DNA from: Candidatus Latescibacterota bacterium
GTDB taxonomy: Bacteria; Latescibacterota; UBA2968
Reading direction: 5' to 3'
Assembly (NCBI GenBank): GCA_038279365.1
Contig: JAYODI010000046.1
Span: 28,361 to 44,254, forward strand
DNA: 15,894 bases
Shown: positions 5,002-8,868 of the stretch, piece after piece
Position numbering within the stretch: the stretch's first letter is position 1
Layout: each line of letters starts with the position of its first letter
Translations under genes and position numbers: made by a program
The notes under the pieces: generated by a model
Database searches by the model: none
Told to the model about the DNA's origin: nothing
Seen by the model: the letters and a program-made list of their open reading frames with translations, nothing else

Positions 5002-5994
5002 TTATTTGATCTTCATGTCTTGAACGGCTTGCACAACATCTTTTACAGTGGGTATGGTTGCATCTTCAAGGGGTTTGCTAAATGGAATGGGCACATCCAT
5101 TGCGCCTAAGCGCACAATGGGCGCGTCGATATAATCAAAAGCACCTTGATAGACGACCGATGCCAATTCGCCTGTGATGCCATAACCGCGATGGCCTTCG
5201 TCGATGATGACAGCGCGGGTGGTTTTGATGACCGATTGAATGAGGGTTTCTGTGTCAAGTGGGACTAAGGTGCGCGGGTCTACAACTTCGGCATGGATGC
5301 CTTGTTCGGCCAAGTGGTCGGCGGCTTGAAGGGCAACGTGTACCATGCTGGATGTGGCAATGAGGGTAACATCATCCCCTTCGCGTTTGATGTCGGCTTG
5401 GCCAAGTGGAATGGTAAAGTCTTCATCTGTGGGCACCATGCCTTTGAGGGTGTACATCATTTTGTCTTCGTAGATCACCACGGGGTTGTTGTCGCGCACG
5501 GCGCTTTTGAAGAGGCCTTTGGCATCGGCGGGTGTGGAGGGTATAACCACTTTGAGACCTGGGATATGTGCCAACCAGGCATGTAAGCTTTGTGAGTGCT
5601 GGGCGGCAGAAGATCGCCCTGCACCGAGGGTGGTACGAATGGTCAATGGCACGCTGGCCTGACCGCCCGACATGTAACAGAGCTTGGCGGCTTGGTTAAC
5701 AATTTGGTCCATGGCGAGGGTGATAAAGTCGCCAAACATCACATCCACAATGGGTCGCATGCCCGTGAGGGCCGCACCGACACCAAGCCCCACCAAACCG
5801 GCTTCGGCAATGGGGGTATCGATGATGCGGTCGGGGCCAAATTCGTCGTAGAGACCGGTGAGCACTTTGAAGACGGTGCCTGCTGGGCCCACGTCTTCGC
5901 CCATGAGAAACACATTGGGGTCACGGCGTAATTCTTCGGCGATGGCTTCTTTAACGGCTTCGCCAAAGGTCATTTCTTTTTCAGACGTAGACAT
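5002..5994 (-). CDS. acoB: TPP-dependent acetoin/pyruvate dehydrogenase E1 beta subunit
   Basis: MGEDV, DTPIAE, DQIVNQAAK, AAQHSQ and EVVDPRTLVPLD are typical E1 beta motifs. Overlaps E1 alpha by 14 nt. Substrate is not certain. Confidence 0.93.
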   Translation of the reverse strand: MSTSEKEMTFGEAVKEAIAEELRRDPNVFLMGEDVGPAGTVFKVLTGLYDEFGPDRIIDTPIAEAGLVGLGVGAALTGMRPIVDVMFGDFITLAMDQIVNQAAKLCYMSGGQASVPLTIRTTLGAGRSSAAQHSQSLHAWLAHIPGLKVVIPSTPADAKGLFKSAVRDNNPVVIYEDKMMYTLKGMVPTDEDFTIPLGQADIKREGDDVTLIATSSMVHVALQAADHLAEQGIHAEVVDPRTLVPLDTETLIQSVIKTTRAVIIDEGHRGYGITGELASVVYQGAFDYIDAPIVRLGAMDVPIPFSKPLEDATIPTVKDVVQAVQDMKIK

Positions 5995-6943
5995 GCTGGT
6001 TCACCTCCGAAACGTCGGGATAGTCGGCTTTTTTGGCGGCTTCAACGGCATTGGCAACTTCGCTTTCCACTTCGCGCACTTCGGCGTCGAGCTCGGCTTC
6101 GGAGGCCAGTTTTTCGGTTTTCATTTTTTCACGTAGGCGATTAATGGGGTCTTTGGCGAGCCACTCATCGCGTTCTTCTTGTGGGCGATACGATTCACCT
6201 GGGTCGCCTACGTGGTGACCTCGATAGCGATAGGTGTCGCATTCGATGAGGGTGGGGCCACCGCCTGATCGGGCACGTTCAACGGCTTGGGCGGTGGCTT
6301 CATAAACGGCAATGGCGTCACTGCCATCGACTTGGGCCGATGGAATGCCAAAGGGTGTGGCACGGTCGGCAATGCATTTGCCTGCGGTGACACTTTGGGT
6401 GGCGGTGAATTCGCCATAGTGATTGTTTTCGCACAGATAAATGATGGGCAATTGCCAGATGGCAGCAAAGTTCATGGTTTCGAAGAAGATGCCTTGGTTG
6501 GAAGCGCCATCGCCGAAGAAACAAACAGCGACTTGGTCGGTGCCTCGTTTTTTGGCGGAGAGGGCAGCACCCGTGGCGATGCCAAAACCACCGCCGACAA
6601 TGCCGTTTGCACCGAGGATGCCCACGGACATGTCGGCAATGTGCATGGAGCCGCCTTTGCCACGGCAATGGCCCGTGACACGACCCATCACTTCGGCCAT
6701 CATGTATTCGAGGTTGCCGCCTTTGGCAACGCAGTGGCCGTGGCCTCGGTGGGTGCTGGTGATGTAGTCGTCGTCGCGCAGGGCGGTGCAGGCACCAACG
6801 GCAACGGCTTCTTCGCCGATGTAGAGGTGGGCGAGGCCGTGCATGAGACCGCCGGTATAGACTTCGTAGATTTGTTCTTCGAAGCGGCGGATGCGGAGCA
6901 TGTTGCGGTACATTTTTAGAAGGATTTCTGGGGGTAGGGGCAT
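5981..6943 (-). CDS. acoA: TPP-dependent acetoin/pyruvate dehydrogenase E1 alpha subunit
   Basis: HLYIGEEA, STHRGHGH, GKGGSMH, TPP motif GDGA...ENN, YRYRGHH. AAGGA RBS. Confidence 0.93.
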   Translation of the reverse strand: MPLPPEILLKMYRNMLRIRRFEEQIYEVYTGGLMHGLAHLYIGEEAVAVGACTALRDDDYITSTHRGHGHCVAKGGNLEYMMAEVMGRVTGHCRGKGGSMHIADMSVGILGANGIVGGGFGIATGAALSAKKRGTDQVAVCFFGDGASNQGIFFETMNFAAIWQLPIIYLCENNHYGEFTATQSVTAGKCIADRATPFGIPSAQVDGSDAIAVYEATAQAVERARSGGGPTLIECDTYRYRGHHVGDPGESYRPQEERDEWLAKDPINRLREKMKTEKLASEAELDAEVREVESEVANAVEAAKKADYPDVSEVNQHVYV

Positions 6944-7012
6944 GGATTGGGTTCCTTTGTTTGGTGCGGGTTATGCGGTTTGATGGTCATCTTTATTGTT
7001 TTGGTTTTGTTC

Positions 7013-7494
7013 TGCCTACGGCGTCATACTTTTCTTGAACACCCAAGAAAAGTATGCAAAAGAAGGGTGCCACTGCGTGGGGCTTAAATTTTGTTTCGTT
7101 GTATTTACGAGCGTCAACCACCCTCACCAGCCCGTGTGGTTCCCGCCCATCCACGTGTTCCACACGCCCCTTCCCCTCCCACCCATCACCGCCCATCCAA
7201 CCACACAACGGCCCACCCCACCCGCGGGCGAAGTTGAAGTTTTGGTGTATTGATTTTACACCCCACCAAAAACACCACAAAAATCACAACCCCGATCACG
7301 TAAAGCGATCGTGATTTTCCGCGTGATCCCGTTCAGCTATTTGCTTTGTAAAAGCGATGAACGGTTTAGGCTATATTATATTGGTGTACCCACTGTGGGT
7401 ATTTGCGGAAAATCAGCCTTCCCGGCACCTGAGGGACGGCTTTTTTTGCTTACTTTTTTTAGCTGTTGAAAAAAAGTAAGTCGTGCCGAAGGCA
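7013..7494. mobile_element. Non-coding ~480 bp structured element with ~55 bp imperfect terminal inverted repeats (MITE-like or structured ncRNA; family not identified)
   Basis: Left end TGCCTACGGC-GTCATACTTTTCTTGAACACCCAAGAAAAGTATGCAAAAGAAG aligns with the reverse complement of the right end TGCCTTCGGC-AC-GACTTACTTTTTTTCAACAGCTAAAAAAAGTAAGCAAAAAAAG (34/43 in the core, with compensatory changes). No credible ORF inside. Splits the E2 and E1 alpha genes. Mobility is inferred. Confidence 0.6.
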
Positions 7495-7557
7495 AACCAA
7501 GATAAAATCTAAAATAAAACCTGCTTTCATGCAGTGTCTATCAAATAAAAGCTCCTC

Positions 7558-8745
7558 CTACAACCACTTCTCCAAATTCCCCACATCCTCCAAACTCTGC
7601 TTAAGCGTCTGTAAAAATTGCGCCGCAACAACCCCATCCACCAGCCGATGATCTGCCGAAAGCGTAATGTCTGCAATCTGACGCACTGCAATGGTGAGTG
7701 GATCTCCAATAGGAACCACACGAGGAATCGCCGCACCAATGGCAAGAATCGCCGCTTCGGGCGGGTTGACAATGGCGGTGAAGGTGGTGACACCATACAT
7801 GCCCAAGTTTGAAATGGTAAACGTGGCTGAAGCATCACCGTGGAGTTTACCTGCACGGGCGTCATTGACCCGTTGGCTTCGAATGTCGGCCAAATCGGCG
7901 AGGAATATTTTTTGTGCGTTGGGAATAACGGGTACAACGAGACCATCATCGGTGCCAACAGCAAGACCAATGTTGACGGTATCGTGAATGACCATCGCCT
8001 GAGTGCCGTTGAGACTGCTGTTGAGTTTGGGATGTTGTGTGAGGGCCTCGGCTGTGGCTTTGATGAAGAGGTCGGTGACCGAGAGTTTGATGTTGTCGGT
8101 TTGGGCAAGATTTTTGCGCCACGTTTCGGCATCGGTCATGTCAATTTCAATGCCCACATAAAAGTGGGGAATGGTGCTTTTGCTATAGGCCATCGTTTTA
8201 CCAATGGCTTGTCGCATTTTTGAAAGAGGACTGCTGCCTGCCTGGACAACGGGTGGCGATGCGGCTGTGCGTTCAACATCGGCTTTGACAATGCGCCCAC
8301 CTGGGCCTGTGCCGATAACGGTGGCGAGGTCGATGTCCAATTCACGTGCACGGTGACGCGCGGCAGGTGAGCGTTTGATGCGCGTTGATGGTGTGTTTGG
8401 GGGAAGTGATTGCGCAGGTTCTGAAACAGATGCTTCAACTTGTGCTTCGGTTGATGGTGTTGACGCGGATGTTTTAGAGAAGGCATCTTTGTCAAATGGT
8501 TCGTCTAATTCATCGGTGAGAATGGCAATGGGCGAAAGCACAGGAACCACGTCACCGTTTTGGGCCAAGATGTGACGCAAATAACCTTTTTCGGGTGCTT
8601 CGTATTCAAAGACGGCTTTATCGGTTTCCAGTTCGAGCAGAATGTCACCTTTTTCGACGCGGTCGCCTACTTTTTTGCGCCATTCGATAATGGTGCCTTC
8701 GTCTTGTTGGAGACCGTATTTGGGCATGTTGATGGGTTTGGTCAT
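7558..8745 (-). CDS. acoC: Dihydrolipoamide acyltransferase (E2) of a 2-oxoacid/acetoin dehydrogenase complex
   Basis: Start reassigned to MTKPINMPKYG (ATG at 8745) because the upstream extension is translated tandem repeat. One lipoyl domain (ETDKA), peripheral-subunit-binding domain (SPAARHRA...GTGPGGRI), catalytic DHRLVDG. Confidence 0.92.
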   Translation of the reverse strand: MTKPINMPKYGLQQDEGTIIEWRKKVGDRVEKGDILLELETDKAVFEYEAPEKGYLRHILAQNGDVVPVLSPIAILTDELDEPFDKDAFSKTSASTPSTEAQVEASVSEPAQSLPPNTPSTRIKRSPAARHRARELDIDLATVIGTGPGGRIVKADVERTAASPPVVQAGSSPLSKMRQAIGKTMAYSKSTIPHFYVGIEIDMTDAETWRKNLAQTDNIKLSVTDLFIKATAEALTQHPKLNSSLNGTQAMVIHDTVNIGLAVGTDDGLVVPVIPNAQKIFLADLADIRSQRVNDARAGKLHGDASATFTISNLGMYGVTTFTAIVNPPEAAILAIGAAIPRVVPIGDPLTIAVRQIADITLSADHRLVDGVVAAQFLQTLKQSLEDVGNLEKWL

Positions 8746-8772
8746 AGGGAACTCGTTAAAGAGGTAAGGGTG

Positions 8773-8868
8773 AAATGGCAAACGGCAAACGGCAAACGGC
8801 AAATGGCAAATGGCAAATGGCAAACCTGGAGGTGTCAAAGATGGATGATGTTATTTTTGCCGTTTGCC
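8773..8868. repeat. Heptamer tandem array (AAAYGGC)x7 with a facing inverted partial array
   Basis: Seven units at 8773-8821, ~30 bp spacer, then TTTTGCC GTTTGCC at 8855-8868. Confidence 0.92.

Follow-up and report, generated by a model that had tools for sequence, protein, structure and literature searches.

Why should the DNA in front of an E1-alpha gene carry a sequence that reads like a triple helix? The question is raised by a 15,894-nt stretch from a Candidatus Latescibacterota bacterium (contig JAYODI010000046.1, positions 28,361 to 44,254; the whole stretch is called the window here), in which the genes for E2 (7558-8838), E1-alpha (5981-6943) and E1-beta (5002-5994) all lie on the minus strand and a 47-nt motif stands in the gap between the first two. 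An initial annotation, made from the letters of the window, had taken this 47-mer for an H-type pseudoknot with a matched pyrimidine third strand, a feature of the E1-alpha leader. The motif is real, and its minus-strand sequence, 7071..7025, had been given exactly: GGCACCC-TTCTTTT-G-CATACTTTTCTT-GGGTGTT-C-AAGAAAAGTATG. The 47-mer is, however, no device peculiar to the operon. A widespread element carries it as its end module, and in plan this element is akin to the extended TwoAYGGAY. The essentials of the structural reading are supported, by natural covariation for all three strands, with a correction to what is probably a 5-bp stem 1 and a 3-nt loop 3. The statement as a whole, which makes the 47-mer a conserved and folded end module, assigns it to a non-coding repeat of mobile-like character and lets it act as an RNA boundary or cap structure, is advanced tentatively, as one that may hold yet falls somewhat short of being probable.

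The arms of the hairpin in this motif form a perfect inverted repeat of 12 bp (13 bp when the next G-C is counted). Upstream of them, GGCACCC is complementary to GGGUGUU of the hairpin loop at 7 positions, two of the pairs being G-U, and TTCTTTT, which lies between GGCACCC and the hairpin, matches AAGAAAA of the 3' arm in parallel at 7/7 positions. Folded as RNA, the 47-mer reaches -15.6 kcal/mol (z = -3.74), and equally stable shuffles numbered 0/200; folding of the plus strand of the 47-mer is comparable (-15.5 kcal/mol, z = -4.42). The ATG of E1-alpha (6943) stands 82 nt past the last hairpin base (7025), where about 80 nt had been annotated. With stem 1 limited to the part that its copies support, the module and the mini-hairpins on its two sides consist of the following parts:

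7070..7080, minus strand: mini-hairpin P1, CCAC-GCA-GTGG, directly 5' of stem 1; its GG at 7071-7070 is shared with the stem 1 of the initial annotation.
7065..7069, minus strand: stem 1, 5' strand CACCC, with its partner at 7044-7040.
7058..7064, minus strand: loop 1, the proposed third strand TTCTTTT, parallel to AAGAAAA at 7036-7030.
7057, minus strand: 1-nt linker G between loop 1 and stem 2.
7045..7056, minus strand: stem 2, 5' strand CATACTTTTCTT, one arm of the perfect inverted repeat.
7040..7044, minus strand: stem 1, 3' strand GGGTG, within the hairpin loop.
7039-7037, minus strand: loop 3, TTC, the remainder of the hairpin loop.
7025..7036, minus strand: stem 2, 3' purine-rich strand AAGAAAAGTATG, defined by the inverted repeat and by covariation.
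7014..7022, minus strand: mini-hairpin P3, GCC-GTA-GGC, 99.1% paired, with GTC/GAC and CCC/GGG variants.

The 47-mer belongs to a repeat. When the gap sequence was searched against its own genome (6.03 Mb, 199 contigs, 98.5% complete), 52 matches were obtained, and blastn gave 64 loci including the copy in the window. The 614-nt gap between E2 and E1-alpha is filled by an inverted doublet of ~500 bp whose end modules point outward, with module A at 7005-7243 on the minus strand and module B at 7285-7505 on the plus strand. Coverage by repeat copies climbs at about 7005 and drops at about 7505, and the similarity within the family stops a few bases past P3, at about 7005-7013, where this coverage falls. 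The end arms, 7022-7065 and 7440-7483, are inverted repeats of 44 nt that are 80% complementary; the annotated label of 'left terminus' is therefore apt, since the 47-mer is one outward-facing end of the doublet. The same pairing of A with B is found again on two contigs, C113 and C49, and the majority of loci consist of a single A or a single B, or of no more than the final 80-110 nt of B. The outer boundary of the copies is sharp, and the inner boundary is ragged.

Comparison with related genomes indicates that the element has been inserted. The gap between E2 and E1-alpha is ~100-115 nt and lacks the element in G005 and G014, two genomes of the same family; the orthologous sites of two B copies on contig C73 are empty in the same-genus genome G001; and in G002 one of these two sites is occupied by a copy that belongs to a different subtype. 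A repeat with 64 loci that is inserted relative to kin displaces the annotated view of a feature belonging to the E1-alpha leader. No target-site duplication is readable at the empty or filled sites, where both the exact insertion boundaries and any duplication are unreadable because the intergenic DNA of the kin is too diverged. (At one site G002:C277 and G000:C73 hold different B subtypes in which hairpin, loop and flank have changed consistently, which points to replacement or conversion and away from gradual divergence. The orthologous gap of G006, locus L185, contains short tandem repeats resembling CCCGTCTC in place of the element.)

The distribution of the element extends well beyond one genome. 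The B module occurs in 18/24 same-family genomes searched, including 15/15 of genus g5, and in 1/16 of the sister family; in related genomes, too, the repeat is present in multiple copies. A pattern of 16 specified bases of the end module, scanned against one genome per species, matched at least 119 stretches; single matches of this pattern mean little, because ~277 chance matches are expected in 596 Gb on both strands. The complete module, which comprises T-run, G, NNTAC-T-run, loop, A-run-GTANN and N-CGCCG-N-AGGC, is present in 46 of the 80 loci listed, and these 46 come from metagenome-assembled genomes (MAGs) of Latescibacterota, from Oscillospiraceae/Oscillibacter, a Bacteroidetes MAG, Saprospiraceae, Lewinella, Rikenellaceae, Fibrobacter, Verrucomicrobia, several Pseudomonas and an Ectothiorhodospiraceae MAG. 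A stricter pattern, applied to five whole genomes, matched 116 and 97 times in two Oscillospiraceae MAGs of 3 Mb, 75 times in the Bacteroidetes MAG, 32 times in a Pseudomonas and once in the Ectothiorhodospiraceae MAG; the reversed pattern, used as a control, gave 0 in all five. The arrangement in G042 is mostly that of the window, a minus copy followed by a plus copy 430-1030 nt on, and in G041 and G042 the DNA flanking the doublets likewise forms inverted repeats. (At the Oscillospiraceae loci L199, L211, L219, L194 (G042) and L200 (G041) the inverted ends run 20-40 nt past the mini-hairpin and hold a further hairpin, of the GTCGG-GTA-CCGAC type, beside an A-run; Pseudomonas copies have a different extra hairpin.) Carriage by phage was considered and rejected, real modules being present in 2/16 viral-contig matches (L226 and L238, identical in sequence); the remaining viral-contig matches are mostly chance-like and in unrelated sequence, several of them within one conserved stretch.

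A connection to a described family is provided by the Pseudomonas locus L108, which has an RF01731 TwoAYGGAY core (43.1 bits, E = 1.3e-5) with the module roughly 25-100 nt 3' of it. Membership in TwoAYGGAY implies two AYGGAY-loop hairpins on a common basal stem and the Rfam gathering score of 43 bits, and the present element lies outside that definition: RF01731 has no match in the window at E <= 1 and none in 6950-7560 at E <= 10, with L108 as the positive control at 43.1 bits. No credible Rfam family was found in the window or, apart from TwoAYGGAY in L108, in eight loci from other phyla.

The fold of the module can be read from its copies. For the own genome, 39 outward-oriented ends were aligned; six copies were excluded, five of them with an insert of ~28 nt beside the hairpin (C45:22673, C191, C103, C36 and C34) and one truncated at the edge of its contig (C32:39185). 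Across the 39 copies stem 2, which had been annotated with 12 bp, is 99.1% paired, with changes on both sides at 7/12 pairs, and its existence is certain. The 5-bp stem 1 is paired in 94.9% of cells, with both-side changes at 4/5 pairs; its junction pair is A-U in 14 copies, U-A in 9, C-G in 8 and U-G in 1, and in none is it unpaired. The observed pairing or covariation was reached by 0/500 shuffles, and sliding the 3' partner by 1-3 columns gave pairing of 41-56%. RNAalifold recovers the hairpin and the GCC-NNN-GGC mini-hairpin, double changes preserving 9/14 of the predicted pairs.

Because MAFFT misaligns copies with 6-nt loops, the tests across phyla relied on a rule-based parse, in which the hairpin was located from the mini-hairpin anchor and stem 1 was fixed by the length of the hairpin rather than searched for. 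Pairs 1-5 of stem 1 are then standard in 411/570 cells, against 324.9 +/- 8.3 when loops of equal length are permuted (maximum 354 over 1000); for the other phyla alone the count is 166/272, and shifts of -1 and +1 give 81 and 73. Stem 1 also exists in self-complementary variants that are wholly different by lineage: GGCACC/GGTGTT, ACGGCA/TGCTGT, GCGAC/GTCGT and AGAGAC/GTCTCT, and further AAGCAC/GTGCTT, AAGCGA/TCGCTT, GTCAA/TTGAC and GCTGA/TCAGC. Each of the two crossing helices of the annotated pseudoknot thus shows covariation of its own, and it is highly probable that stem 1 exists. The choice of strand is upheld as well: since G-U exceeds A-C in stem 1, by 47 to 9 in own-genome copies and by 36 to 10 elsewhere, the folding strand is the one that runs from the body of the element to its end.

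The mini-hairpin P1 covaries (CCAC/GTGG, CCGC/GCGG and TCAC/GTGA; CCCC/GGGG also occurs), its pair 48-59 of alignment A1 being CG in 24 copies, AU in 11 and GC in 2. The bases G7071 and G7070, which provide the distal G-U pairs of the stem 1 first proposed, are also part of the 3' arm of P1, and because they belong to this covarying helix the supported stem 1 is that of 5 bp, CACCC (7069-7065) with GGGTG (7044-7040).

Two side observations concern the same end module. In 105/108 unique modules, across phyla, the base that stands two positions ahead of the GCC in the terminal mini-hairpin is the Watson-Crick complement of the central triloop base (T..A 55, C..G 35, G..C 8, A..T 7; window 7011-7024 on the minus strand, own genome, and loci L052-L223); ordinary secondary structure gives no account of a pair between the two. 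In addition, a hairpin of ~28 nt, of the GAATGC-TCAAATTACTC-GCATTC type and in either orientation, occurs inside the hairpin loop, in place of loop 1, or after the hairpin (contigs C26, C111, C191, C103, C45, C113, C34 and C36, with a kin variant in L136), and resembles a very small secondary insertion directed at the end module.

With loop 1 in the major groove and parallel to the purine arm, a C-G pair of the hairpin should find a C at its mirrored position in that loop. This expectation was examined in 133 unique modules obtained from 171 parsed (own genome 58, kin loci 12, scan loci 58, G041-G045 43). At register 0 the mirrored loop-1 base is C in 49/67 cases opposite a stem-2 C-G and in 46/736 opposite a U-A, so that the matched pyrimidine strand of the initial annotation, including its C opposite the G-C pair, reappears among homologs, where the annotation had proposed to look for it. 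The correlation is confined to this register, the C counts away from it being 15/67 at -2, 14/67 at -1, 7/64 at +1 and 4/62 at +2. A smaller first data set had given 41/56 versus 45/611. Divided by source, the same C rule gives 10/17 versus 19/309 in the own genome and 39/50 versus 27/427 in all others; other phyla alone give 34/42 versus 13/291. According to class, the C occupies the third to the seventh position of the run (TTC.., TTTC.., TTTTC.., TTTTTC.., TTTTTTC..), which corresponds to five helix heights, and loop 1 tracks the hairpin in most; by an estimate from the class list there are about twenty distinct classes in at least four phyla.

The pattern has properties that bear on its cause. 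Asymmetric cases such as TTCTTTT/TTTTCTT are mirror repeats rather than direct repeats, and because of this an alternative Watson-Crick pairing of loop 1 with the A-run fails as an explanation. Where the hairpin has an inverted G-C (C on the purine arm), loop 1 has T in 18/47, C in 16/47 and G in 11/47; since it is mostly T or C there, the pattern is no blind mirror copy. Statistically, then, loop 1 behaves as a parallel strand with covarying isomorphic triples, U with A-U and C with G-C, and it seems reasonably probable that the base triples really form. (One subtype of kin copies, L074, L099 and L104, has ...GGGCAGTTGTACCCCGCTCG directly before the hairpin in place of both the T-run and the stem-1 flank; these copies are natural variants without a third strand.)

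A simpler account would hold that the hairpin alone matters, as a protein site or a simple stabiliser, and that the mirror run and the complementarity of flank and loop are incidental consequences of the common descent of the copies. In most copies a plain T-run faces an A-run, which is uninformative, related copies inflate the counts, and loop 1 is missing in the subtype just described and replaced by the ~28-nt insert in C191, C103 and C45, all of which would suit this account. It is already disfavoured, and is considered very improbable, given the double changes at 4/5 stem-1 pairs in one genome, the distinct stem-1 sequences that are self-consistent in Pseudomonas, Oscillospiraceae and Latescibacterota, and a C rule that keeps a single register at five helix heights in several phyla.

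Whether the three strands fit together was considered with ideal A-form phosphate positions from fibre parameters and the textbook assignment of the deep-groove crossing to loop 1. The crossing of the deep groove is ~10 Å at 5-6 bp, and for this reason the single G would suffice to lead from the seventh triple to the base of the 12-bp hairpin. The crossing of the shallow groove requires about 17-19 Å for 3 bp, 22-26 Å for 5 bp and 30-34 Å for 7 bp. It is here that the annotated stem 1 has to be shortened: the complementarity does extend over 7 positions, and five of the pairs make up the supported stem, but 7 bp with a 1-nt loop 3 is sterically impossible, because ~30 Å would have to be spanned with a reach of at most 14 Å, and loop 3 is thus too short for the minor groove of the stem as proposed. 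A 5-bp stem 1 with UUC as loop 3 requires about 22-26 Å and has at most 28 Å available, which would be borderline feasible.

What the module might do depends in part on the bodies to which it is attached, whose features are these:

7072..7243, minus strand: body of module A, G-rich, from 20 aligned A-type copies.
7204-7199 / 7141-7136, minus strand: basal stem of module A, GTGGTT / AACCAC, varying as GCAGTT/AACTGC and GCCGTT/AACGGC.
7166-7154, minus strand: hairpin of module A, CGTGT-GGA-ACACG, enclosed by the basal stem and varying as CATAT/ATATG and CGCGT/ACGCG.
7285..7415, plus strand: body of module B, with about 25 long copies and about 15 shortened to 80-110 nt.
7416..7447, plus strand: terminator-like hairpin of module B, GCCTTCCC-GGCACCTGA-GGGACGGC followed by T7, seen by eye, with covarying variants GCCTCCCC/GGGGCGGC.
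7449..7494, plus strand: right terminus, CTTACTTTTTTT-AGCTGTTG-AAAAAAAGTAAG plus GCC-GAA-GGC, the inverted counterpart of the 47-mer.

The type of the right terminus is the commonest subtype in the own genome. The T7 that follows the module B hairpin is also loop 1 of the B end, the 3' arm of this hairpin holds the stem-1 strand of B, and an A-rich run, GGAAAATCA, lies on its other side; judged from these letters, the hairpin looks like a two-way terminator, one that the consensus terminator scan missed because its stem has one mismatch. (The sequence TGGATGGGCGG occurs twice in module A, at 7199-7189 and 7153-7143.) Two more familiar identities were also considered for the 47-mer and set aside. 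As a sigma-54 promoter, TGGCAC...TTGCA overlaps the motif with a spacing of GG-N12-GC rather than the N10 of the consensus; as an intrinsic terminator, the motif has its U-run before the hairpin, and the consensus scan found 0 terminator-like sites in 6800-7700.

For the orientation of the ends toward genes, the parsed copies of the own genome were classed by their upstream sequence and related to the nearest open reading frame (ORF) of at least 120 aa, which is a crude gene call. A-type ends aim at the start of the next gene in 19/20 cases, the hairpin being 22-84 nt from the ORF start in ten, and of the B-type ends with a downstream ORF, 23/33 are turned towards a gene's 3' end. Because A-type modules aim at the next gene start so consistently, it is plausible that the 47-mer lies in the E1-alpha operon mRNA, within the leader. 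A 184-nt metatranscriptome contig, whose strand is unknown and which may be DNA carry-over, covers another B copy through the hairpin and mini-hairpin.

The favoured reading of the fold is as follows. The body-to-end strand carries the 11-13-bp U/A-rich hairpin (stem 2); the run immediately 5' of the hairpin, made of U with a C at each C-G pair of the hairpin, would occupy its major groove as the third strand, aligned in parallel with the purine arm and forming U.A-U and C+.G-C triples; stem 1, with 4-5 bp between flank and loop, would pin the beginning of this run to the hairpin's top; and the element is closed by the GCC-NNN-GGC mini-hairpin. The preferred outcome would be a compact, nuclease-resistant boundary in transcripts that read out of the element. 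With the A-type copy of the window, such a boundary would stand in the 5' leader of the E1-alpha mRNA, 82 nt upstream of the ATG; E2 would receive a two-way terminator from the B half, and the fold may also serve the recognition and copying of the element. When the doublet is read in this way, E2 would be followed by a terminator-like unit, the A body, and then the pseudoknot module in front of E1-alpha. A bolder form of the reading, which is distinctly unlikely, would see in the module a portable exonuclease-proof or insulating cap, the bacterial counterpart of the ENE (element for nuclear expression) and the exonuclease-resistant RNA (xrRNA), carried across at least five phyla by a transposase-less element that drops terminator-plus-leader cassettes, with a fold that may double as a copying handle.

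Several observations weigh against the boundary reading. Small shares of three metatranscriptome runs, analysed as contigs, gave no cover over module A or the 47-mer, which is neutral on expression. B ends are mostly antisense to their neighbours, and therefore the gene message carries the reverse complement, without the G-U pairs. The C rule fails in 18/67 cases at register 0, for example in C76, where TTTTTTT stands opposite AAAGAAA; several copies fit it only with a shift of one base; and the kin copies L074, L099 and L104 lack any T-run. Copies of one lineage are kin, so the counts exceed the number of independent events. No enzyme able to move the element was found in the searches for TnpB, RVT_1 and Y1. 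Finally, loop 3 has 0-1 nt in 75/89 best helices, with nearly the whole loop complementary to the flank in many copies. Because of this last property, a full loop-flank helix and a full stem 2 cannot coexist in a coaxial H-type fold; on the geometric model, there would be either formation of just the 4-5 junction-proximal pairs together with the hairpin, or alternation between stem 1 and the upper part of stem 2.

The second of these options leads to a different role for the module, namely that of a switch, in which stem 1 and stem 2 (with its third strand) are alternative conformers and, at B copies, a knot in the opposite-strand RNA competes with termination. Such a switch would agree with the finding that, on the outward strand, a complete stem 2 is incompatible with full-loop complementarity and a 0-1-nt loop 3; the reverse strand, moreover, would give a canonical H-type knot, with 0-1 nt across the deep groove of 5-7 bp and an 8-nt A-rich loop along the hairpin. 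In B copies the terminator-like hairpin has the 5' strand of stem 1 as its 3' arm; in the opposite-strand RNA its 5' arm would be the flank that pairs with the loop; and 23/33 B copies are antisense to the preceding gene. A switch is nevertheless quite improbable: because G-U exceeds A-C (47:9 and 36:10), the stem-1 pairing appears to be selected on the outward strand; the rule of C with G-C is the pyrimidine-motif rule of that same strand; and no ligand or factor is known.

A further possibility is that the fold acts in DNA. The doublet would then be a non-autonomous transposon resembling a miniature inverted-repeat transposable element (MITE), whose single-stranded ends fold into the hairpin, a T.A-T/C+.G-C triplex and the flank-loop helix and are recognised or processed by an enzyme, RNA being uninvolved. 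Much about the family is of this kind. The 44-nt ends, inverted and 80% complementary, constitute terminal inverted repeats; doublets with outward ends occur here, on C113 and C49, and throughout G042; congeners differ in presence or absence of the element; copies are sharp at the outer and ragged at the inner boundary; close genomes differ extremely in copy number, as also described in the text of the preprint on extended TwoAYGGAY (10.64898/2026.09.22.753630). G.T wobbles and pyrimidine-motif triplexes form in DNA as well.

No candidate for the enzyme that such a transposon would call for was, however, found in the searches for TnpB, RVT_1 and Y1. The TnpB-type domain PF07282 has 0 matches in the 98.5%-complete own genome (the control was positive in 8/14 reference genomes), and on this ground an omega-RNA of the insertion sequence family IS200/IS605 was rejected. 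The reverse transcriptase domain RVT_1 is likewise absent from the own genome and from the high-copy genomes G001, G002, G005 and G006, and retro-mobilisation was rejected with it. Two Y1_Tnp homologues are present in the own genome, neither flanked by the module, and no Y1 transposase was found in the high-copy complete genomes G014 and G022; a relation to repetitive extragenic palindromic (REP) sequences and their associated tyrosine transposases (RAYT) was therefore set aside. (G003, a genome of the same family with 8.4 Mb in one contig, has 75 Y1 transposase-family matches, a burst of IS200/IS605 type, yet the repeat is missing from it.) Among the G042 matches listed, paired ends are never separated by a gap of coding size, no target-site duplication is readable, and the bias in gene orientation is more easily explained by transcription. 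A role in DNA without RNA is thus placed on the unlikely side, as a serious competitor to the RNA boundary.

A literature search for triple helices in bacterial repeats of this kind returned no prior description, and to our knowledge the bacterial cases of triple helices are confined to a handful of riboswitches and introns. The closest structural relatives are the pseudoknots of telomerase RNA and SAM-II and of SAM-V (PMC6061858), which share with the present module the order stem 1, pyrimidine loop 1, stem 2, stem 1', stem 2' and a loop 1 that runs parallel to the purine strand of stem 2, with U.A-U and occasional C+.G-C triples. They differ from it in loop 3, which has 0-3 nt here and 6-10 nt there, and because this loop is so short stem 1 here must be short or transient; they differ also in stem 2, which is much longer here (11-13 bp), and in their ligand or protein context, of which the present module has none.

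The parallel that the initial annotation drew to ENE-type helices is good for the type of base triple but not for the topology. The triple helices at the 3' ends of ENE and MALAT1 RNAs likewise have a U.A-U stack broken by C+.G-C and a proposed role in protecting a transcript boundary (PMC6379651, PMC7583470). An ENE, however, clamps a 3' A-rich tail in a U-rich internal loop, whereas here the A-run is the 3' arm of the hairpin, the third strand is an upstream U-run, and the 47-mer contains no U-rich internal loop. H-DNA offers another likeness, in that TTCTTTT-GCATAC-TTTTCTT is a pyrimidine mirror repeat. H-DNA needs only such a repeat in duplex form, whereas the strand here also carries a third copy, inverted and in purines, together with a flank-loop helix, and these point to a single-stranded fold rather than H-DNA.

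Among repeats, REPs with their doublets (REPINs) and MITEs such as Correia are likewise short, intergenic and palindromic, form inverted doublets, differ between strains in presence or absence, and affect neighbouring transcripts. The present element differs from them in that no association with a RAYT or other transposase was found and in keeping both sequence and fold across phyla, unlike the lineage-specific REPs and MITEs; the crossing helix and the mirror run belong to it and not to REPs.

The nearest relative in plan is the extended TwoAYGGAY of Pseudomonas, for which the preprint's text (10.64898/2026.09.22.753630) describes a '3' pseudoknot', multi-copy spread with median copy numbers of 11-23 and up to 202, and doublets of which 68.4% are divergent. 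The same text treats function and mobility as unresolved, suggests Csr/Rsm sponging for the AYGGAY loops, finds the extension largely confined to Pseudomonadota, and reports REP arrays at a fixed position downstream in SBW25; a word search of it for 'triplex' gave no hit. Judged by its position, the '3' pseudoknot' is presumably the end module studied here. The two elements share a multi-copy intergenic habit, large differences in copy number and frequent divergent doublets, and the basal stem of module A, which encloses a GGA-loop hairpin, is reminiscent of TwoAYGGAY without matching it. They differ in that the window has no RF01731 match and lacks the two AYGGAY loops, module A having one GGA-loop hairpin, and in that the present end module occurs in Latescibacterota, Oscillospiraceae, Bacteroidota and others, on unrelated bodies. 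The multi-copy TwoAYGGAY elements of Pseudomonas are in this way tied to a wider class that shares the end module rather than the AYGGAY core. This class brings natural covariation ready-made for all three strands, and it offers a concrete target, testable in cultivable Pseudomonas, for studies of how the element spreads and how it affects neighbouring genes.

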